From Octopus vulgaris (lineage: Eukaryota), in contig OX597816.1 in NCBI GenBank assembly GCA_951406725.2, positions 85,746,001 through 85,810,000 of the forward strand: a stretch of 64,000 nucleotides of DNA, written 5' to 3'. The notes under the pieces were generated by a model. That model saw nothing but the letters and a program-made list of their open reading frames with translations. It was not told the DNA's origin and did not search any database. Below, piece after piece: positions 879-15,234 of this stretch; the first letter of the stretch is position 1, and each line of letters starts with the position of its first letter. Both the position numbers and the translations under genes were made by a program.

Positions 879-2409
879 TTTGTGTGTGTGTGTACATACA
901 TAAATATCAAAATATAAATATACATGTATGTAGATATGTATACATAGATATATATGTATATTTGTGTATGTAGATTATATGTACACATACAAAGGCACAT
1001 ATATCACAGCAACAATTAGTATGTTCGAACCACTGGACCTTCATCCATTACGCAAGCCTCAAATAGTACTAATGTAACTTTAAAAACTATCCTTCACTTT
1101 AACTAACACGAGACAAAAGCAAATCATTTACAGTTGCATGAAACAATAAAATGAATTGTCATATGAAAGCCTTCAAAGGTATCCGGGTTGCTAATGATGT
1201 TCATATTTGAAATTCGTCCAATTTTATGACGTACATAGTATATAATCTGAGAGAATGTAATAGTGATTTTAATATAACATAATTCCTCAAGGTGCATCTT
1301 CCATGAATGTACATTTTGCTGACACACATTGCTTGATTGATTTGTCGAACATCTTTAGAGGAAAGAGAATAATATTCATCACTTCAAACCATTCAAACGT
1401 ACATAATTTATTTTTCTTCGCTTTTAAATATTACACACAAAAAAGAAACACTTTCTTAACGCCGTAATTCGGAAACGTAGAGCTATTACTAAATGTATAG
1501 TCTCAGAAGAAAATTAGCGTTATTATTTTATGTTATGAGAGAAAATTTACTGATCAATGTTGGGAAGAAATTCACAGTGATTAGCCTAGACGTGTATTTG
1601 TTCCAAGAAAATGCTTTATAGAAGATTTAATCTGAAAATCCATTTTAATCAAAAAATCGCTTTTGATCCATTATATGTTTGTTAGAAGAACGATTACCAT
1701 TTACATAAATTTGTAAGAAGTAATGGCAAAAAAGAGGGTTTCCTTAAAAGTTCCTCGGTTCATGATTGAATTAGCTTATCCTTGTTTCTTTCTCTTTGAA
1801 TGAGATTTATATTCATTGCTTTAATTTAAATTTCCTCTTATGCAAAATGATTCAATCCAGTGAACATACATTCCTATTCAACCTAATCAACCATAGATAT
1901 AAAATGTTGAAACTGAAAGCCATTGTGGGTACCGCATTGTAGTACTTTCTTATCTGCCCTATGTTAAAACACGTTGCACAGTGCATGCTTTATGCATTTT
2001 GTTATGCAATGACGATATACCTAGGTATAACAATATGTAAGGTCCTAAGATTCACTCTGTACGTAATAATGGGTCTACAGCACGTTTAAGCAATACACTG
2101 TTGTTACGTGTTCTACTATGAATGTTGGTGAACTAGTCACTTGTATTTCCGCATTACCTTTTTATGTGTTTAAAACTTACCTGAAAATGGCAGGTGTATG
2201 CCATGATGTAATCTCAAAACGTACCAATAAAAATGCTGCCAAAAGAGCTGATGTGTATATATGTAGATGGATAGATAGATAGAAAGACACACAGATAGAC
2301 AGAGATAGAGAGGAAGAGAGATAATGATGCAAATAAACACGGTTGGGCATTGTATATGAAGTATACGAACATGTATATTTGAAATGTTCGGGTACATTCG
2401 GACAAGGAA

Positions 2410-2545
2410 AGGCAACCAGAAGCTTTTTGAATAAGTACTGGGCTTACAAAAGAATAAGTCCCGTGATCGAGTTGCTCGATTAAAGACGGTGCTCCAGCAT
2501 GGCCGCAGTCAAATGACTGAAACAAGTAAAAGAGTAAAGAGTAAA
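2410..2545 (+). mobile_element. SINE 3' portion
   Basis: ataagtactgggcttacaaaagaataagtcc...ggtgctccagcatggccgcagtcaaatgactgaaacaagtaaaagagtaaaagagt. Recurs at about 53125-53295, 62590-62730 and 40975-41130, and inverted at about 22470-22520 and 57190-57350. Confidence 0.75.
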
Positions 2546-2729
2546 TAATAATTAAAATCAAACTAAAGTATAATATAATCGTAACATAACAAAAGAAAAA
2601 ATAGCAATTGGTATAAAATTGCATTAATGACTTGAACTTGAATAAGTGGTTTCACATGAATGGGAATAAATTAAAAGTAAAATTAGCGTGCAGAAATGGA
2701 ATAGTCCAGATGGATAATAAAAAATTAAA

Positions 2730-2800
2730 TTAAAGGAAAGACAATTGTCTATAAAGTATACAACGTAGAGAAAACAGAAGATTTGAACACATCGAGCAAA
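2730..2800 (+). pseudogene. Left half of a decayed L1/Tx1-type ORF1 that was the insertion target
   Basis: Translates KGKTIVYKVYNVEK, which aligns with EKKRIIYKTYDTT in the LINE ORF1 and ENKTVTYRTQDKS in the short-element ORF1. Confidence 0.55.
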
Positions 2801-2928
2801 TTTACCCACGTGTGTTGTTATCTGTGATTAGAAGTTGAAATTTTGTTGTGTAAAGTGATTAATATCGCGCGAGGCGTTTGCCTCCACGTTTGGAAACCTT
2901 CAGAAGAAGGTGAATTGACCCTCTAGTC

Positions 2929-3108
2929 ATGGCGACTTACGCGGGGGTCACGGGAAAGAAAAATAATGATTCGTCGATAATCGTGAAGGATGTTTTCTTT
3001 GAGAAAAGTAAAATCAAAGAATATGAAAAGCTATTCAAAAGGGAGGGTGATAGCGTGAAGCTAATCCCCCCGCGAAAGCAAAAGAGGACAAAGAAAACAA
3101 GACTGTAA
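2929..3108 (+). CDS. N-terminal segment of ORF1 (59 aa, MATYAGVTGKK...KREGDSVKLIPP), overlapping the main ORF1 frame
   Basis: ATG in gtcATGG context. TYAGVTGKK..IVKDVFFE..KREG aligns with KFAEVAGKK..IKKIYIE..KKEG in the LINE ORF1 N-terminus. Confidence 0.7.
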   Translation: MATYAGVTGKKNNDSSIIVKDVFFEKSKIKEYEKLFKREGDSVKLIPPRKQKRTKKTRL

Positions 3109-4328
3109 CGTATAGAACCCAGGACAAAAGTACAAAGAAACTGGCAAGAGTGGAGATAGCAGAGATCGAAAAATGTCTGGGAGACATAATGGATAAATCG
3201 ACCTACGTGAGTAGAGGAAAAAAATTTGGTACGGTGGAGGTGAGATGTGCAACGGAAGAAATTGCAGCCTCACTGGCTACCACTGTTCTAAGAGCGGAAA
3301 CATTTATAATGTGGCCCTCATACAAGGGAAGAAGAGGGGTCCGGGTTAAAATCCCGAATATACCCCCAGAAGTAAAAACAGAATGGCTGGCAACAGCTAT
3401 TCTAGGAGCAGCAGAAGAGGAAGTGGAGGTGGAATCCTTTAAGGAGTCCAACGCAGTAAATTGGAGAGGATATGGGGTAGAACTGTGTTTGATGGCCACA
3501 AAAGAGGACATTGAAAGGTTCCCCTATAGAATAGAAATCGAAGACGAGAAAACCCTCAGTGTAATTGTAGAGGGAAGAAAGCCAAACTGCTACTTGTGCG
3601 GGACAAGGGGGCACATTAAAAAAGAGTGCCCGTTATATGAATTCGTGGCGGAGTATGAGAAGGAAATTGAAGAAAAGAAGAATACGGTAAATGAAAGAGA
3701 AAACATAGAAAAGGAGACAAAACAACAAGAGAAAGGAAATAATAAGTCAACGAAGGAAAAAGAAATAAAAGAAAAGAAAGAAATAGAACCAAAACAGAGT
3801 CAGGAAAAGAAAAAGGAAAAAGAAACAACAGGAAAAAAACAAGAGAGAGAACAGAACCAAACGAAAAGAAAAGACGGCACACAAAAGGAAAAAGAAAAGG
3901 AACATAAAACACGAGAGAAAGAGAGAACAGACAAAGAACCAAAAAGACAAGAGAAGGAAGAAGAAAGAAAAGAAGGCAAAAAGAGAGAAAGAGAGAAACA
4001 AAGAGAGGAGAACAAGGAAGAAGTAAGCCCGAAAAGAAAAACGAGAGAAAACGTAGGACGGAAACAAGATTACTACAAGTTAATAACCTTCCATTTCAGC
4101 CCCGAAATGAAGGAATTGACATGTAGTATGGAGGGACATGTGTGGGTCAACAGGATGACTGATCAGTGGCAGGAGACTGCTCTGATCCCCGAAGAAAGAG
4201 TCGCTGAGTTCCTCAGAGCAGCTGGAGAGAGTGTAAATTTTTACACGGGTGTTCGAGTGAAAGAGCGGCTGCCTGAGGGCTCAGTGATTGACTTTAGAGA
4301 CTTGAAAAGTATTATGGAATACGTGTGA
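3054..4328 (+). CDS. LINE ORF1-like nucleic acid-binding protein: RRM-like region, CX2CX4HX4C knuckle, K/E-rich linker, unknown C-terminal domain
   Basis: Frame is open from 3054 (ORF track starts at GTG 3150). Contains CYLCGTRGHIKKEC. SRGKKFGTVEVR and VIVEGRKPNC match NRGKRYGTVEVR and VFVDGRKPRC in the LINE ORF1. Confidence 0.85.
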   Translation, partial: REANPPAKAKEDKENKTVTYRTQDKSTKKLARVEIAEIEKCLGDIMDKSTYVSRGKKFGTVEVRCATEEIAASLATTVLRAETFIMWPSYKGRRGVRVKIPNIPPEVKTEWLATAILGAAEEEVEVESFKESNAVNWRGYGVELCLMATKEDIERFPYRIEIEDEKTLSVIVEGRKPNCYLCGTRGHIKKECPLYEFVAEYEKEIEEKKNTVNERENIEKETKQQEKGNNKSTKEKEIKEKKEIEPKQSQEKKKEKETTGKKQEREQNQTKRKDGTQKEKEKEHKTREKERTDKEPKRQEKEEERKEGKKREREKQREENKEEVSPKRKTRENVGRKQDYYKLITFHFSPEMKELTCSMEGHVWVNRMTDQWQETALIPEERVAEFLRAAGESVNFYTGVRVKERLPEGSVIDFRDLKSIMEYV

Positions 4329-4581
4329 GATTGTGAGAGGAGAGAGAAGAAAGAAGAGAAAAAGAAAAAAAAAATTGTGAACTATATGTGACGAAAATGT
4401 AACCTCTCGATTCCGGGGATCGAGTGGGCATTTGCATCTCATTGTAAATATTCTTTCATTTGTCATTTTTATTTTAATTTTTCCCTTCTTGTCATTTCGC
4501 TTTCTTATTTTAAGTTCCCCGATTGTATTGTCCCCTCTATGTTCGCCCCTTGTGGGTAGTAATAAAATCACATCGAGGAAA

Positions 4582-6348
4582 TTTACCCACGTGTGTTGTT
4601 ATCTGTGATTAGACGTTGAAATTTTGTTGTGTAAAGTGATTAATATCGCGCGAGGCGTTTGCCTCCACGTTTGGAAACCTTCCGAAGAAGGTGAATTGAC
4701 CCTCTAGTCATGGCGACTTACGCGGGGGTCACGGGAAAGAAAAATAATGATTCGGCAATAATCGTGAAGGATGTTTTCTTTGAGAAGAGTAAACTCAAAG
4801 AATACGAAAAGCTATTCAAAAGGGAGGGTGATAGCGTGAAGCTAATCCCCCCGCGAAAGCAAAAGAGGACAAAGAAAACAAAACTGTAACGTATAGAACC
4901 CAGGACAAAAGTACAAAGAAACTGGCAAGAGTGGAGATAGCAGAGATCGAAAAATGTCTGGGAGACATAATGGATAAATCGACCTACGTGAGTAGAGGAA
5001 AAAAATTTGGTACGGTGGAGGTGAGATGTGCAACGGAAGAAATTGCAGCCTCACTGGCTACCACTGTTCTAAGAGCGGAAACATTTATAATGTGGCCCTC
5101 ATACAAGGGAAGAAGAGGGGTCCGGGTAAAATCCCGAATATACCCCCAGAAGTAAAAACAGAATGGCTGGCAACAGCTATTCTAGGAGCAGCAGAAGAGG
5201 AAGTGGAGGTGGAATCCTTTAAGGAGTCCAACGCAGTAAATTGGAGAGGATATGGGGTAGAACTGTGTTTGATGGCCACAAAAGAGGACATTGAAAGGTT
5301 CCCCTATAGAATAGAAATCGAAGACGAGAAAACCCTCAGTGTAATTGTAGAGGGAAGAAAGCCAAACTGCTACTTGTGCGGGACAAGGGGGCACATTAAA
5401 AAAGAGTGCCCGTTATACGAATTCATAGCGGAGTATGAGAAGGAACTTGAAGAAAAGAAGAATACGGTAAATGAAAAAGAAAACATAGAAAAGGAGACAA
5501 AACAACAAGAGAAAGGAAATAATAAGTCAACGAAGGAAAAAGAAATAAAAGAAAAGAAAGAAATAGAACCAAAACAGAGTCAGGAAAAGAAAAAGGAAAA
5601 AGAAACAACAGGAAAAAACAAGAGAGAGAACAGAACCAAACGAAAAGAAAAGACGGCACACAAAAGGAAAAAGAAAAGGAACATAAAACACGAGAGAAAG
5701 AGAGAACAGACAAAGAACCAAAAAGACAAGAGAAGGAAGAAGAAAGAAAAGAAGGCAAAAAGAGAGAAAGAGAGAAACAAAGAGAGGAGAACAAGGAAGA
5801 AGTAAGCCCGAAAAGAAAAACGAGAGAAAACGTAGGACGGAAACAAGATTACTACAAGTTAATAACCTTCCATTTCAGCCCCGAAATGAAGGAATTGACA
5901 TGTAGTATGGAGGGACATGTGTGGGTCAACAGGATGACTGATCAGTGGCAGGAGACTGCTCTGATCCCCGAAGAAAGAGTCGCTGAGTTCCTCAGAGCAG
6001 CTGGAGAGAGTGTAATTTTTTACACGGGTGTTCGAGTGAAAGAGCGGCTGCCTGAGGGCTCAGTGATTGACTTTAGAGACTTGAAAAGTATTATGGAATA
6101 CGTGTGAGATTGTGAGAGGAGAGAGAAGAAAGAAGAGAAAAAAGAAAAAAAAATTGTGAACTATATGTGACGAAAATGTAACCTCTCGATTCCGGGGATC
6201 GAGTGGGCATTTGCATCTCATTGTAAATATTCTTTCATTTGTCATTTTTATTTTAATTTTTTCCCTTCTTGTCATTTCGCTTTCTTATTTTAAGTTCCCC
6301 GATTGTATTGTCCCCTCTATGTTCGCCCCTTGTGGGTAGTAATAAAAT
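4582..6348 (+). mobile_element. ORF1-only element, copy 2 (1-nt frameshifts)
   Basis: Near-identical to copy 1. ORF pieces at 4931-5155, 5026-5805 and 5886-6107 are broken at short base runs. Confidence 0.9.
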
Positions 6349-6361
6349 CAAATGGCGGAAA

Positions 6362-8111
6362 TCAATTTGCGTGTTGTTATCTGTGATTAGAAGTTGAAAT
6401 TTTGTTGTGTAAAGTGATTAATATCGCGCGAGGCATTTGCCTCCACGTTTGGAAACCTTCCGAAGAAGGTGAATTGACCCTCTAGTCATGGCGACTTACG
6501 CGGGGGTCACGGGAAAGAAAATAATGATTCGGCAATAATCGTGAAGGATGTTTTCTTTGAGAAGAGTAAACTCAAAGAATACGAAAAGCTATTCAAAAGG
6601 GAGGGTGATAGCGTGAAGCTAATCCCCCCGCGAAAGCAAAAGAGGACAAAGAAAACAAAACTGTAACGTATAGAACCCAGGACAAAAGTACAAAGAAACT
6701 GGCAAGAGTGGAGATAGCAGAGATCGAAAAATGTCTGGGAGACATAATGGATAAATCGACCTACGTGAGTAGAGGAAAAAAATTTGGTACGGTGGAGGTG
6801 AGATGTGCAACGGAAGAAATTGCAGCCTCACTGGCTACCACTGTTCTAAGAGCGGAAACATTTATAATGTGGCCCTCATACAAGGGAAGAAGAGGGGTCC
6901 GGGTTAAAATCCCGAATATACCCCCAGAAGTAAAAACAGAATGGCTGGCAACAGCTATTCTAGGAGCAGCAGAAGAGGAAGTGGAGGTGGAATCCTTTAA
7001 GGAGTCCAACGCAGTAAATTGGAGAGGATATGGGGTAGAACTGTGTTTGATGGCCACAAAAGAGGACATTGAAAGGTTCCCCTATAGAATAGAAATCGAA
7101 GACGAGAAAACCCTCAGTGTAATTGTAGAGGGAAGAAAGCCAAACTGCTACTTGTGCGGGACAAGGGGGCACATTAAAAAAGAGTGCCCGTTATACGAAT
7201 TCGTAGCGGAGTGCGAGCAGGAACTCGAAAAGAAGAATACAGTAAATGAAAAAGAAAACATAGAAAAGGAAACAAAACAACAAGAGAAAGGAAATAATAA
7301 GTCAACGAAGGAAAAAGAAATAAAAGAAAAGAAAGAAATAGAACCAAAACAGAGTCAGGAAAAGAAAAAGGAAAAAGAAACAACAGGAAAAAAACAAGAG
7401 AGAGACAGAATCAAACGAAAAGAAAAGACGGCACACAAAAGGAAAAAGAAAAGGAACATAAAACACGAGAGAAAGAACCAAAAAGACAAGAGAAGGAAGG
7501 AGAAAGAAAAGAAGGCAAAAAGAGAGAAAGAGAGAAACAAAGAGAGGAGAACAAGGAAGAAATAAGCCCGAAAAGAAAAACGAGGGAAAACGTAGGACGG
7601 AAACAAGATCACGGCTTCTACAAGTTAGTAACCTTCCATTTCTGCCCTGAAATGAAAGAATTGACAAGTAGTACGGAGGGACATATATGGGTCGACAGGA
7701 TGACCGATCAGTGGCAGGAGACTGCTCTAATCCCCGAAGAAAGAGTCGCTGAGTTCCTCAGAGCTGCCGGTGAGAGTGTAACATTTTACACGAGTGTTCG
7801 AGTGAAAGAGCGGCTGCCTGAGGGCTCAGTGATAGACTTTAGAGAATTGAAAACTATCATGGAATATGTATAGAAATGTGAGAGAGAGAGAAGAAAGAAG
7901 TGAAAAAAGAAAATATTGTGAAATATATGTGACGAAAATGTAACCTCTCGATTCCGGGGATCGAGTGGGCATTTACATCTCATTGTAAATATTCTTTCAT
8001 ATGTCATTTTTTACTTTTATTTTTTCCTTTTCTTGTCATTCGCTTTCTTATTTTAAGTTCCCCGATTGTATTGTCCCCTCTATGTTCGCCCCTTGTGGGT
8101 AATAATAAAAT
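6362..8111 (+). mobile_element. ORF1-only element, copy 3
   Basis: Same architecture. ORFs at 6708-7565 and 7652-7873. Diverged 3' half and a different 5' leader (tcaatttgc). Confidence 0.9.
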
Positions 8112-8125
8112 CACATCGGCGGAAA

Positions 8126-9873
8126 TTTACCCACGTGTGTTGTTATCTGTGATTAGACGTTGAAATTTTGTTGTGTAAAGTGATTAATATCGCGCGAGGC
8201 ATTTGCCTCCACGTTTGGAAACCTTCCGAAGAAGGTGAATTGACCCTCTAGTCATGGCGACTTACGCGGGGGTCACGGGAAAGAATAATAATGATTCGGC
8301 AATAATCGTGAAGGATGTTTTCTTTGAGAAGAGTAAACTCAAAGAATATGAAAAACTATTCAAAAGGGAGGGTGATAGCGTGAAGCTAATCCCCCCGCGA
8401 AAGCAAAAGAGGACAAAGAAAACAAGACTGTAACATATAGAACCCAAGACAAAGATACAAAGAAACTGGCAAGAGTGGAGATAGCAGAAATCGAAAAATG
8501 TCTGGGAGACATAATGGGGAAATCGACCTACGTGAGTAGAGGAAAGAAATTTGGTACGGTGGAGGTGAGATGTGCAACGGAAGAAATTGCAGCCTCACTG
8601 GCTACCACTGTACTAAGAGCGGAAACATTTATAATGTGGCCCTCATACAAGGGAAGAAGAGGGGTCCGGGTTAAAATCCCGAATATACCCCCAGAAGTAA
8701 AAACAGAATGGCTGGCAACAGCTATTCTAGGAGCAGCAGAAGAGGAAGTGGAGGTGGAATCCTTTAAGGAGTCCAACGTGATAAACTGGAGAGGATATGG
8801 GGTGGAACTGTGTTTGATGGCCACAAAAGAGGACATTGAAAGGTTCCCCTACAGAATAGAAATTGAAGATGAGAAAACCCTCAGTGTAATTGTAGAGGGA
8901 AGAAAGCCAAACTGCTACTTGTGCGGGACAAGGGGGCACATTAAAAAAGAGTGCCCGTTATACGAATTCGTAGCGGAGTGCGAGCAGGAACTCGAAAAGA
9001 AGAATACGGTAAATGAAAAAGAAAACATAGAAAAGGAAACAAAACAACAAGAGAAAGGAAATAATAAGTCAATGAAGGAAAAAGAAATAAAAGAAAAGAA
9101 AGAAATAGAACCAAAACAGAGTCAGGAAAAGAAAAAGGAAAAAGAAACAACAGGAAAAAAACAAGAGAGAGATCAGAACCAAACGAAAAGAAAAGACGGC
9201 ACACAAAAAGAAAAAGAAAAGGAACATAAAACACGAGAGAAAGATAGAACAGACAAAGAACCAAAAAGACAAAGAAGAAGGAAGGAAAAGAAAAGAAGGC
9301 AAAAAGAGAGAAAGAGAGAAACAAAGAGAGGAGAACAAGGAAGAAATAAGCCCGAAAAGAAAAACGAGGGAAAACGTAGGACGGAAACAAGATCACGGCT
9401 TCTACAAGTTAGTAACCTTCCATTTCTGCCCTGAAATGAAAGAATTGACAAGTAGTACGGAGGGACATGTGTGGGTCAACAGGATGACTGATCAGTGGCA
9501 GGAGACTGCTCTGATCCCCGAAGAAAGAGTCGCTGAGTTCCTCAGAGCTGCCGGGTGTTCGAATGAAAGAGCGGCTGCCTGAGGGCTCAGTGATTGACTT
9601 TAGAGACTTGAAAGGTATTATGGAATATGTATAGAAATGTGAGAAGAGAGAGAAGAAAGAAGAGAAAAAAGAAAATATTGTGAAATATATGTGACGAAAA
9701 TGTAACCTCTCGATTCCGGGGATCGAGTGGGCATTTACATCTCATTGTAAATATTCTTTCATATGTCATTTTTTACTTTTATTTTTTCCTTTTCTTGTCA
9801 TTTGCTTTCTTATTTTAAGTTCCCCGATTGTATTGTCCCCTCTATGTTCGCCCCTTGTGGGTAATAATAAAAT
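8126..9873 (+). mobile_element. ORF1-only element, copy 4
   Basis: Same architecture. ORF at 8475-9434 and a deletion of about 20 nt near 9553. Confidence 0.9.
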
Positions 9874-10099
9874 CACATGGAGGAAATCAATTTTTTGCGT
9901 TATTAGTAAGTTGATATATATTTTGCTCTCGTACTATTATCTCTGTTATTATATACTGTTGGTCTACCTGTTTTGTCTATTGTTGTCTAACTGACGAAGT
10001 CAGCCTTCGCGCGAAGACTTCGCGTTGGTGTTCCCCCTCCGTGGGGGAAAACTACAATTAATTTGGATTTACCAAAGGCTTGTTAAAGCCATTTGTTCA

Positions 10100-11119
10100 A
10101 GATGGAGTCCCCCATCTCTTATTCGCCCGTGACGAGCGAGGATGAATACCCGGCGTTGTCGCCAAGAAAAAAAGAGGCGTTGTCGCCGAAGAAAAAAGTG
10201 GCGGCGTCGCCCAAGAAAATGGAAAAACCAGTACCAGCATCAACTCCAGCAAAAAAATTCGCTGAAGTGGCTGGGAAAAAGATTAAAAAAATATATATAG
10301 AAAATTTGGAAAAATTTGCAGACTGTGTAAAAAAAGAAGGGCACAGAAGTGACTGTGGCCACAAACATACAAAAACATGACGATATAGAAAAAAAAAGAA
10401 TAATATATAAAACTTACGACACAACGACAAAAATGATCCAAAAAATCGAAGAAAAAAAAATAGAGTTTTGTCTAAAACCTTTTATGGATAAAATAACGTA
10501 TATAAACAGAGGAAAAAGATACGGCACAGTGGAGGTGCGTTTTACTATGGAGGAGATAGCGAAAAAACTATCGATGGAGCCAATCAAAGCAGAAAACATT
10601 GTCTTACAACCATTGTATAAAGGAAAAAGGACGTCGAAAATTTCAATGAACAACATACCGCCAGAGGAAGATGCAGAATGTCTGGTGGCAGCAGTGATGG
10701 TAGGCCTGGAGGAAAAAATAAACATCCTCCAGGCCACAGTGGAGGAAGAGGAGTTTTGGAAAGGGCAGAAAATAGTGATAGCCATTCAGGCGGAGGTGCA
10801 AACACTGGAAGAAATTCCAGAAACGGTAAAGATTAGTGAAGACGAGAAAATAACAGTTTTCGTGGATGGCAGGAAGCCGAGGTGCTTCGGCTGCGGCAAG
10901 AAGGGTCATGTAAGGGCGGAATGCCAACCCCAACCCAAACCGCAGGAAGCACCTAAGCCAAGAGAAAAAGAAGATAATGTGTCACCAGAAGCAGCGTCGG
11001 ACGGCCCAGAAGGGAAGACTGAAGGTGTGAGGTGGTGACAGCAGAACCAGCGGCGGAGGAAAAAAAGAGCGAGGAAAAGATAACTGCGGAGGGGTGGGCA
11101 AAAATTACCGGAACTTAAT
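10100..11119 (+). CDS. LINE ORF1 with zinc knuckle, frameshifted near 10340 and 11030
   Basis: ORF pieces 10093-10380 (SPKK repeats) and 10349-11038. Contains CFGCGKKGHVRAEC. An E-rich tail continues in another frame to TAA near 11119. Confidence 0.8.
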
Positions 11120-11147
11120 TACCGAACCACTGATATAAAGGTAAGTA

Positions 11148-14100
11148 ATGGATTACATTTATGTTGGTTGTTTGAATGTGCGCGGCCTGGGAGCAGGCTG
11201 GAAGCAAGGTCGCTTCCTGCATGATATCAGGTCGCGTAATTTAGATGTTATTGTTGCTACAGAAACCCGGTTAGAGGGGCCAAGAGGTCTACTCCCGCTG
11301 TTTGACGGCTACGAGAGTTTTTTCTCTCCTGGCAGTCCTACAGGCGGGAGTGGGGTGTTGGTCCTATTAAAAGAAACCGGGTTTCTGAGAAAAAGTTAAT
11401 TTTTGCAGATCCAGAAGGTAGGCTGGTCGTCATGGATTTGACGTTCAGTAATGGTAAAGTTATCAGACTGGTTGCAATTTACGCACCCAACCATACAGGG
11501 CAAAGTGATTATTTTCGTGAACTAGAAAACTTTCTTGGTACTTCGCATTCATTAGTGGTGCTAGGAGACTTTAACACAATTTGCAAAGCGGATGTAGATT
11601 GTGTTGGCTCGCGTCCAGATAGAAAAGGCAACAGTGGCTTCATGGAACTGCTAAGCCGCTTTGAGCTAGCAGATCCTTATAGGCTGGAATTTCCGAACGC
11701 TCCATTGTGGACATGGTCAAACAGCGACGGATCTTCCAGGTCATATTTAGATAGAATACTAATTAGAAAAGTAGACAGTAAAATAGCTAAGTGTCCACAG
11801 TTTTACCCGATCAGCTACAGTGATCATAAAATGGTCACTTGTAAGCTTGACATAGATAAGGTTAAAAATAGAGGATCCGGTTACTGGAAACTTAATACGT
11901 CCCTTTTGGCGATTAAGGAGTACAAAGACCGGATTAGGAATATAATTCAGAGGGCACTATCTGGTACCATCATTAATAACAAATGGTGGTACGCCCTCAA
12001 ACGAGCCATCAAGTTTGAGTCTATTAGATATAGCATAGGAGTAGTGGCTAGAGAGGCTAGAAGGGAAACTACTCTAGTTAAGGAATTAGAGGAAGCCATG
12101 AAAACTGGCTCTGCGGCTCAGGTGGCGTCCAAGAGACTGGTGTTAAACCAGCACCTCGAGGCCAAACACATGGGCTGCATTGTCAGGGCTAGAATCCGCC
12201 ATATGGGATGTGAAGGAATCAACGCCGTGAGATGGGCCCGAGTGGTGGAAGCTCAGCATGGTAACGATGCCACGATTCGATCTTTGACGAACCAACAAGG
12301 TGAGTTGATAAACGAACCCGAGGAGATGTGTGAGGCCTTTCAGGAGCACTTCGCTCAGCTTTTCGGTGAGTGCGGCGGACTGGATAGGAGGAGGGCCTTT
12401 ACGGACCTACTCGACGGGCTGCCGCGCTTATCGGGGCGAGATGCGGAGGGCTGTGAAGGGCCAATCACGCCTGAGGAGGTGGTTGAGGCAATGGCGGACT
12501 GCGGCGTGGGCAAGGCGCCGGGTTTGGATGGTCTACCCTATGAGTTATATAAGAGTATGCCAGACTTGTTCGGGCACCTACTGGCGGAGGTCTATGCGAA
12601 CTGGCAGCAGAACGGGCTTATACCCAGATCTGTGCGCCGGGGAGTAGTGACTCTCGTCAGAAAGGACCCGAGCAAGGGGGAGTGCATTGATAATTTCAGG
12701 CCCATCACTCTGCTAAACACAGAGTTGAAGATTTTGGCCAAAGTGTTATCGAAAAGATTGGCGCGTGTCGCGGATGGTCTGATCGGAGAGGCACAGACAT
12801 GTGCCGTTCCGGGCAGATCCATTCAGGATAATCTCCATCTAATGCGGTACACTATAGAGGGGTTTAATAGTGATTCTGGCAAGGGTGGGGCACTGGTCCA
12901 TTTAGACCAATCTAAAGCTTTTGATAGGGTCGACCATCGTTACCTGGTATCTGCCCTGGCACAGTTCGGGCTGAGCCTTGGCTTCCTCAGGTGGATTATC
13001 CAAATTTATGATAACATCGACTCGGTAGTTCGGGTGAACGGCTTCTTGTCGAAGCCGTTCAAAATCAAACGCTCGGTTCGTCAAGGGTGTCCGCTCTCCC
13101 CGCTTTTGTACGTGATGGCTCTTGAGCCATTACTGCGAAAACTGAGCGGCATCCCGAGACAGCCAGGTAATGGAAAATCAGTGTCAGCGTACGCGGATGA
13201 CATCACCATCATCGTAACCGAAATGGACCACCTATGTAAAGTAGGCAAGGCCATAGAGGTTTACGAGACGGTGACAGGAGCAAAAGTTAATCGCGAAAAG
13301 TCAGTCGGCTTGCAACTCGGCACCTGGAGAGGCAAGTCGATGCCTCCTGACAGCGTCGTGGGACGTTGGACGGAGGGTCCGATTAAACTGCTAGGGGTCT
13401 GGTTCGGTCCAGACCTCCAAATAGAGAAGAATTGGGGCGAGGTAACGAGCAAGGTGGCTGCAGTAGCCAAGACCTGGTCTTGGCGGTGGCTATCCCTGAA
13501 AGGGAGGGCGGAGGTGGCCAATGTGTTTATCGCATCGGTTATCACCTACCGCCTTTCCGTCGTTCCTTGCCCTGATTCGTGGTTGATCAAGTTGGAAAGA
13601 CAGCTCTTCTACTTCTTGTGGAAGGGCGGGAAACCACTTGTGAAACGCTCTACTTGCTGTCGACAACCGTTAAAGGGTGGGCTAGTGATGCCGTGGCTGA
13701 TGATGCGCAGACATGCGCTGAGGTTAAGACATCTGTGGCTCTACCTGGATGGTGAACGGGTGTGGTCTTCGCTAGCAAAACTGATGTTTCCCAAGTTCAC
13801 TAGTTTCGGTGGATGGGAAACCTGGCTGAATCGTAGATCGAAACTTGGTACTTGGTACACGGAGTGTCGCAAGGCTCTCCTGCTATTCCGTCGCTCGGGC
13901 AACGCCTGCGGTGGGGGTTCCACCACATTCTTCTATAGAGGGTTGGTAGAGGCGGAATGTGAAGATACCTTGGGGAAACCCTAGGTCTCGACGATAATCA
14001 GCTGGCCAGTCTGTTCCGACGTACGTTCAAGCCGAGGACACTGGACAACTTCCAGAAGTCTCTGGCATGGCAATGCTACAGAGGAGCTCTACCTGTTCGG

Positions 14101-14541
14101 GATAAACTCGCAAGGCACGGTGGCCAAGACAGTCCGATATGTCCAAGATGCGGGCGGGATAGGGAAACCGTCCCGCACGCTATTGTTCATTGTCCGGACG
14201 TGTCTGAGGTGTGGGTTTATGCCGAACAGCTGTTGTCAGGTACACGAAGAGTACAGCTGTCGACTGAGTCGATTACAAAAATTGACCCACCGGATTTCCT
14301 CGTGAATGAAGGTAAGTTTCGTTTTCTCGTTGTAGTAGCAATTGCGAAAGAGGTGATATGGAAGACGAGAATGAAAGGTTTACAGTCAGGCAAGTTCATC
14401 TCCGGCCCTGGTTTGATGAATTATTTCATCTTTCACCTGAAAAGGAAGATAGGGCTGGAGAGAATATGCCTGACTAGGAGAGTGTATGAAGAACGATGGA
14501 AGGATGTAGCACGAAAGTTGCGAGTGAAAGATACAACATAA
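11148..14541 (+). CDS. LINE ORF2: APE endonuclease, reverse transcriptase and C-terminal CCHC; two frameshifts (about 11372 and 13978)
   Basis: Endonuclease motifs LNVRGL, ATET, IYAPN, LGDFN, YLDRI, SDH. RT motifs KAPGLDG, FRPITLLN, LDQSKAFDRV, RQGCPLSP, AYADD. C-terminal CPRC-x7-H-x4-C (CPRCGRDRETVPHAIVHC) near 14140-14195. Confidence 0.93.
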
Positions 14542-14785
14542 ATGTAATACCAAGCGCAACCAAAAGTATCAGTGGGGAGGCGGGGCTCGTGGGGTCCGAG
14601 CTAAACCCGCACCCACTCCACCCGTAATGTCTTCCGGTCTGTCCCATCATTCGATTTCTGTCCATTTATTGTAATTCATGAAAATTTTTAAATTCGATTT
14701 ATTGTAAAAACCCATTCGTGTGTCTGACCCCATCATCAGATTATATTGTCCCATCTATGTTCGCCCCTTGTGGGTAATAATAAAA

Positions 14786-15095
14786 CAACATGGAGGAAAG
14801 CACCTTCGAAAAGTGTCTTGGTGTGACTATGAAAGATATCTAATCAGAGGCGGTAAATTCGCCACAATAGAAGCAAGGATCGAGTCAACGGAGCGTGCAA
14901 GGGAGTACTCGACTCGAAGTTGCAAAGTGGAAATATTTTATTTTTACCTTTATATCTGGGACATAGGATTTCCCGGAAAAAAATTTAAAATGCCCTCCCC
15001 CCAGAAGTAGAGGTAGGCTGGATTGTAGTCACACTTCTATGCAAGAAGGAGGACAAGATACAAATGATTGAAATTACAAGAGACGGGCTAAAAAT
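14786..15095 (+). pseudogene. Right half of the decayed ORF1 target
   Basis: MEESTFEKCLG / IRGGKFATIEARIESTERA / PPEVEVGWIVVTLL align in order with EIAEIEKCLG / SRGKKFGTVEVRCATEEIA / PPEVKTEWLATAIL. Confidence 0.75.
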
Positions 15096-15234
15096 TCCAG
15101 TCTGTTATATATTTTGAGTATTGTTATCACTAGCGATATCAAGATATAACTTTGTATTTTGTATTTTATGTGTAGATGTATATATATATATGTACATGTA
15201 ATATGTACACATATATATGCACATATATACATGC

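Follow-up and report, generated by a model that had tools for sequence, protein, structure and literature searches.

Within the 64-kb window analysed here (the whole stretch of Octopus vulgaris DNA under study), five LINE-type elements lie head to tail in one orientation, and a short motif recurs at every boundary between them. This raises the question whether the motif is a target sequence duplicated upon each insertion or a part of the elements themselves. Four elements encode only an ORF1 (S1 to S4) and one is an L1/Tx1-type LINE (L); they and their main components are arranged as follows:

2788..4568, + strand: S1, ORF1-only element of subfamily a (zf-CCHC, E 7.5e-5)
4569..6348, + strand: S2, ORF1-only element of subfamily a, with 98.9% identity to S1
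6349..8111, + strand: S3, a mosaic with an S2-like 5' half and a 3' half of subfamily b
8112..9873, + strand: S4, ORF1-only element of subfamily b
9874..14786, + strand: L, APE-type LINE with two ORFs (L1/Tx1 group), its frames interrupted in this sequence
10102..11038, + strand: ORF1 of L, with one frame break and a zinc knuckle
11148..14541, + strand: ORF2 of L (APE endonuclease, RT, zf-RVT), with two frame breaks
4521..4567, + strand: 47-base 3' tail common to the S copies and L (94-96% identity), ending in AATAAA

The boundary strings are found where an earlier note on this DNA had put them (2788, 4569, 6349, 8112, 9874, and 14786):

2788..2800, + strand: junction J1, CACATCGAGCAAA, immediately 3' of the landing-site DNA
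4569..4581, + strand: junction J2, CACATCGAGGAAA
6349..6361, + strand: junction J3, CAAATGGCGGAAA, preceding an L-like leader
8112..8125, + strand: junction J4, CACATCGGCGGAAA
9874..9886, + strand: junction J5, CACATGGAGGAAA, 12 bases of which are the same as in J6
14787..14799, + strand: junction J6, AACATGGAGGAAA, coding sequence native to the landing-site ORF1

The consensus given in the earlier note, CACATNGNGGAAA, is exact at J2 and J5 and inexact at the other junctions. Its two further observations stand: six junctions carry six different sequences, unlike an identical plain duplication, and the motif variant tracks the downstream leader at all five junctions that have a downstream element. 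The variant ATCG is paired with the TTTACCCAC leader (S1, S2, and S4) and ATGG with TCAATTT (S3 and L), a covariation that on its own reaches Fisher p=0.10. When CACATGGAGGAAA is searched with up to two mismatches, six matches occur in the window against 1.61 expected (five junctions and one site elsewhere), and at least six matches were reached in one of 100 shuffles; J4 escapes this search because of an extra base. A degenerate pattern, composed post hoc with the data already seen, matches all six boundaries and no other site. The strength of this evidence lies in finding the motif at each boundary between elements, and the covariation alone is weak. An snRNA, tRNA, or rDNA origin of the motif, also raised earlier, was searched for (Rfam, tRNA) and not found, with nothing at gathering score in Rfam and a single chance match (E 0.97). 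A telomere-type repeat unit is absent from the 81 tandem-repeat rows of the 64 kb.

The two kinds of elements are related at both ends. The ORF2 of L shows the Pfam domains Exo_endo_phos, RVT_1, and zf-RVT, all above cut-off, and the element has three frame breaks overall in this sequence. A profile of L and its relatives scores 404 bits with L1 ORF2p versus at most 136.5 bits with R2. ORF1 of Tx1 elements carries a zinc knuckle; the zf-CCHC domain is above cut-off in S (E 7.5e-5) and below it in L (E 0.036). L likely belongs to the Tx1 clade. A named Tx1 reference is absent among the matches, and the named relatives come from Octopus vulgaris, O. sinensis, and Argonauta. Among active LINEs of O. 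vulgaris, L1-Tx1 is listed as the sole L1-group class (PMC13282606, Table 1).

The S copies encode an ORF1 with a zinc knuckle and neither RT nor endonuclease. Their ORF1 is 37% identical to that of L over 182 aa and has a C-terminal region of its own. The common tail recurs at positions 6301, 8064, 9826, and 14739, and the S and L leaders are homologous in a gapped alignment over about 60 bases. This common tail and these homologous leaders suggest that S is mobilised in trans by an ORF2 of the L family, and S matches the description of those bipartite non-autonomous LINEs in which an ORF1 is present (PMC5786205). Two subfamilies are separated by 38 sites that distinguish S1 and S2 from S3 and S4, and private substitutions amount to 0.06-1.7% in the S bodies, with private sites in all four copies. 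S3 switches from subfamily a to b near base 860 of the unit, and this mosaic arose from template switching or local gene conversion.

Several minor features of these elements are recorded here. The ORF1 of all four S copies has a frame break at a run of six C (3061, 4842, 6619, and 8386), which falls after the ATG at 2929 and before the long frame; it reflects a programmed frameshift, a common dead source, or a systematic sequencing error. Annotated O. vulgaris proteins likewise begin downstream of this frame break. The S-type leader contains TTACCCAC, the reverse complement of GTGGGTAA in the tail (4583-4591 and 8127-8134), and this complementarity is missing from the L-type leader. Eight complementary bases were reached in 24-30 of 3000 shuffles, and the 7-base match in S1 and S2 in 129 of 3000; the two sequences could pair the RNA ends or mask AATAAA, a weak, post hoc find. 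No significant RNA fold was detected at the tail or leader by pseudoknot-free folding (leader folds z -1.6 to +1.3), and an HDV-like ribozyme had no Rfam match at E<=1 over 2400-3000. In the ATGG motif variants, the ATG starts a short upstream ORF within the leader (6349-6390 and 9874-9906), which ATCG variants are without. A related tail at 572-640 with a CCCTTGTGGG core is 81% like the S tail over 47 bases. It adjoins AGAAACGTTAGCAC within a repeat that we take to be SINE-like, which points to a sister family with a different downstream flank.

Whether the motif preceded the array depends on the DNA into which the first element was inserted. Protein alignments show the two halves of one decayed ORF1, that of a third related LINE, on either side of the array:

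2732..2785, + strand: left half of the decayed ORF1, 18 codons without gaps in the register that the right flank predicts
2786..2789, + strand: AACA, the sole bases common to both flanks in the in-frame registers (0 and +3)
14787..15080, + strand: right half of the decayed ORF1, with two frameshifts and stops (tblastn E 1.9e-5)

The right flank matches the ORF1 of S and L (tblastn E 1.9e-5) as well as other homologues (blastp E down to 5e-12). For the left half, matches to ORF1 homologues are short and individually weak (best E 0.04), and its register score of 35 was equalled by 5 of 102,784 control stretches. P0313, an intact ORF1 relative, reads EEST where J6 falls, and therefore the J6 motif is native coding sequence and was not brought by L. 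The same comparison shows that the pre-insertion site already contained one motif copy. As a side observation, the ORF1 of L reads AAAATCGAAGAAA at the site homologous to the landing site (10433-10474), resembling the ATCG variant, and the ORF1 of related families may therefore be a recurrent target.

How much of the site was duplicated depends on the register in which both halves are joined. The anchor residues straddling the site are spaced by 18 residues in 43 of 48 homologues, by fewer in 5 of 48, and by more in none; therefore, the register was chosen in which the flanks have only AACA in common. Profile scores are 21.8 bits for register 0 and 22.1 bits for register +3. The latter gives the better pairwise alignment, but the insertion it requires is seen in no homologue, and its flank overlap is also just AACA. 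A clean duplication of 12-13 bases demands an out-of-frame register; with two other frameshifts present in the relic within about 300 bases, this register is disfavoured, not disproved. The in-frame register is preferred over a clean duplication by several-fold odds, short of proof; read in this register, the leftmost motif (J1) is apparently no clean duplication of the pre-insertion site. Junction peptides are absent from the database proteins compared.

These data bear on the simplest alternative, a plain stacking of the R1 type, in which a 12-base duplication is reused and the variants stem from sloppy 5' joining and later mutation. The motif being native to the landing site speaks for this alternative, and so do the other frameshifts of the relic, but a frameshift would be needed exactly inside an interval that is otherwise of the right length. 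There are precedents in R1, with a 14-bp target-site duplication reported between tandem copies (PMC2718515), and in SINEU-3, which is reported to be mobilised by Tx1 (PMC4494074). The strongest link to plain stacking is provided by L itself, which is flanked by an exact 12-base repeat (ACATGGAGGAAA at both J5 and J6). Such a repeat is what a plain duplication predicts and thus counts against an element-borne motif. By chance, a landing site would match the head of L at 12 of 12 bases with 6.5e-8 per position, or at about 360 sites in 2.8 Gb; within the array itself, sites with one or two mismatches have evidently been used. The L junctions may represent a true duplication, or the endonuclease and a read-through RNA may favour near-perfect sites when an array starts.

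At the S elements the junctions behave differently, and the earlier proposal that the motif is partly element-borne is supported for them, J1 being no clean copy and the variants following the downstream element; for L, a plain duplication fits as well. At five of five junctions, the G/C at core position 5 agrees with the leader downstream, and at four of four, the A/C at position 7 agrees with the downstream S subfamily. Neither position tracks the upstream tail: type a and type b tails each precede ATCG once and ATGG once. At J1, an S-type block lies directly on landing-site DNA, with no upstream element as a supplier. The ATCG junctions (J1, J2, and J4) are non-contiguous, with J3 interrupting them, whereas serial duplication of one site would leave related junctions side by side; by hand count, it then takes at least six events in 72 bases. 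The probability of at least six events is 9e-5 at 1% decay, 0.003 at 2%, and 0.15 at 5%; at 5% decay, the junction variation is unremarkable. Plain stacking would have to accommodate these events together with the same G-to-C change at non-adjacent junctions, each before the same leader. In view of both sides, it is regarded as an unlikely explanation.

S2 and S3 differ at 9 of their 23 leading bases and then at only 2 of 822. Since their first blocks differ while their bodies are nearly identical, the junctions arose one by one. This contrast also concerns the possibility that one or two inserts were multiplied by unequal crossover or by tandem duplication, or that the array is an assembly artefact; the 98.9% identity of S1 and S2, the 2/822 differences between the 5' halves of S2 and S3, and the mosaic S3 would lend themselves to such an origin. 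However, a crossover of the S3 front with the S1 back would copy the junction, and the J2 and J3 blocks differ at 9/23 positions. The 3' halves of S3 and S4 are 25/894 sites apart, so that S3 is no recent copy of S4, and private sites in all four copies also speak against such events, which are considered highly improbable. Simple unequal crossover as the origin of the array was rejected on the 9/23 versus 2/822 contrast between S2 and S3. Local gene conversion may have contributed.

We therefore prefer, and consider probable, a reading in which the motif is both the endonuclease target and the head of the element, so that each full-length insertion leaves a new landing site at its front. The tails end with TAATAAAA plus one base; the next bases are AACAT at J6 and CACAT or CAAAT within the array. 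Because the tails end in this way directly before the motif, the nick is placed 5' of it; the bottom strand would be cut just 5' of a site resembling (A/C)ACAT(G/C)G(A/C)GGAAA. The RNA of the element would begin with its own motif copy, which would be copied in at the 5' junction. The simplest geometry would be a stagger of 2-4 bases with CA microhomology, which would explain the two extra bases at J1 and the five heads starting with CA. When the target is the head of another element, this microhomology would prevent bases from building up within the array. A close alternative, with nearly the same result, would be a 12-base stagger in which the copy carried by the RNA anneals, as has been proposed for R2. 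Propagation of junction variants through RNA has also been proposed for R2 (PMC3774820). AATAAA lies 2-3 bases upstream of the motif; being so near, it suggests that transcripts extend into the head of the following element and that they could base-pair with the nicked DNA strand, a pairing of read-through RNA that has been proposed for R1 (PMC2718515). Repeated rounds would pile different subfamilies at one spot.

Read-through is also the basis of another explanation, according to which a junction block of roughly 25 bases rides on the 3' end of the read-through RNA of the upstream element. In the S leaders, a GU-rich tract follows about 25 bases after the motif, in addition to AATAAA 2-3 bases before it, and from the position of this tract, transcript ends would be expected close to the end of the variable block. 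This would account for the L-like block on S3, and R1 is reported to insert sometimes up to 14 bases of downstream target (PMC2718515). Against it, J1 has the block without an upstream element, native landing-site sequence directly follows the motif at J6, and the variants are independent of the upstream tail, which together make a 3'-carried block improbable.

The motif could instead be primarily a YY1-like internal promoter signal, with stacking mediated by a host factor or open chromatin and not by endonuclease recognition. YY1 binding needs an ATGG core; three of the four S heads read ATCG and are without this core, and the first landing site is coding sequence in the middle of an ORF1. 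A regulatory origin is thus quite improbable, in spite of the location of the motif at the extreme 5' end and the resemblance of J3 (CAAATGGCGG) to the YY1 site of human L1 (CAAGATGGCCG at nt 12-22; PMC2912911).

If the motif is indeed target and head at once, a wider scenario can be sketched, which at present must be called possible but doubtful. In an octopus L1/Tx1 lineage, the RNA would have come to begin, as a fixed feature, with a mimic of the lineage's endonuclease target. One autonomous and at least two ORF1-only families would have this head in common and form mixed head-to-tail stacks at many sites, with the ORF1 of related LINEs as the place of seeding. They would form a guild comparable to HeT-A/TART with a safe landing site of its own, in need of neither telomeres nor rDNA.

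The separate ingredients of the preferred reading all have precedent, and the novelty is their combination, not the principle. Tandem arrays of R1 are described to form by insertion into its own 14-bp duplication, and some of its transcripts carry target sequence (PMC2718515). As in the tandem arrays and melanogaster-type R1 of Drosophila, an APE-type LINE is stacked in the octopus array, its units joined head to tail at a single site with a short target copy between them. Unlike R1, whose spacer is reported as an invariant 14-bp stretch of 28S rDNA, the octopus array has spacers that change along with the element downstream, occupies an ORF1 relic and no RNA gene, and mixes autonomous with ORF1-only elements; identical duplications between units, the hallmark of R1, are not found in the octopus array. 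In R2 of earwig, sow bug, and horseshoe crab, a target copy of 21-24 bases with 1-3 substitutions is described at the 5' end, which in the earwig corresponds to downstream target sequence (PMC3774820). On the preferred reading, the octopus elements would resemble R2 in this substituted target copy at the 5' end. R2 is described with a restriction-like endonuclease, a single ORF, an HDV-like ribozyme, and a 28S target, whereas L has an APE domain and two ORFs.

Tx1 families are reported to target other transposons often, and SINEU-3 to form tandems around a duplication (PMC4494074). The octopus array is like Tx1L, Tx1-Mar, and SINEU-3 in its probable clade, in a site inside a mobile element, and in sequential tandem insertion with a target copy between. 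A Tx1 family counts as target-specific in that work when the same sequence occurs in >20% of flanks across copies (PMC4494074); here, the same motif is found at five of five copies, all at one locus. An element-borne target copy is not described for Tx1-clade elements in the excerpted text of PMC4494074. The Tx1 targets reported there are DNA transposons, LTR elements, snRNA or 5S genes, and microsatellites, and the octopus site differs from these in being a LINE ORF1.

Cnl1 is a subtelomeric fungal element of a different clade and endonuclease type. In Cryptococcus, it is reported to insert preferentially within itself (PMC9942834), yielding nested arrays with many truncations, in contrast to the head-to-tail array of the octopus. 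HeT-A, HAL1, and Ag-Sponge are given as ORF1-only non-autonomous LINEs from the Jockey, L1, and CR1 clades, respectively (PMC5786205). S is like them in coding for ORF1 alone and in having both ends in common with an autonomous partner. HeT-A arrays are described at chromosome ends; the window is without telomere-type repeats. Double insertion has been put forward as a general source of tandems (bioRxiv 10.1101/158386), and Utopia junctions are treated in PMC4640811. In the literature searched, Repbase reports lying outside it, neither this octopus array nor a Tx1 element whose head mimics its target is described, and the combination as a whole is likewise unreported there for elements of the L1/Tx1 type.

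Target-specific LINEs normally rely on a host multicopy site, which saturates. If the preferred reading is true, an element whose head is its target has a landing site that is renewable and does little harm, and it could found satellite-like arrays at any place. The naturally occurring variants of the junction offer a ready panel for studying recognition by the APE endonuclease and the choice of target or cDNA in second-strand priming. Caution is required, as these copies are annotated as genes in octopus assemblies.

Relatives of these elements were also sought beyond this locus. Among the matches listed, part of 8060-15100 is contained in 20 of 24 sequencing runs (9 studies), none of them an RNA run. 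A metagenome scan was uninformative: its 80 loci are all 22-36% identical, a single one-mismatch motif match occurs in 493 kb, and the S/L tail was not found in them. The viral and prokaryotic collections contain no relative and no tail. A search of four of the eight supplementary files of PMC9115989 yielded none of four motifs, and the accessible text and supplement of PMC13282606 give LINE family counts and no junctions.

Among the proteins listed, 22 of 30 contain an S-family ORF1, in named Octopus vulgaris records on 9 distinct scaffolds; two of these 22 proteins are the window's own. Consecutive accessions occur at four places (CAI9715245-249 and 251, CAI9739099-101, CAI9729052-053, and CAJ1099379-380). 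The run CAI9715245-249 and 251 holds several different sequences, which suggests another array; such arrays are deduced from the accession order of gene models, and identical sequences could be isoforms. In 4 of the 22 gene models, a repeated segment of 87 residues is fused upstream of S, which hints at a second family upstream of S copies, known from gene models and not from DNA. The 87-residue segment (P0192, P0203-P0213) occurs on many scaffolds, not in this window, and is weakly like the C-terminal region of the S ORF1 (38 of 2000 shuffles; blastp E 0.15).
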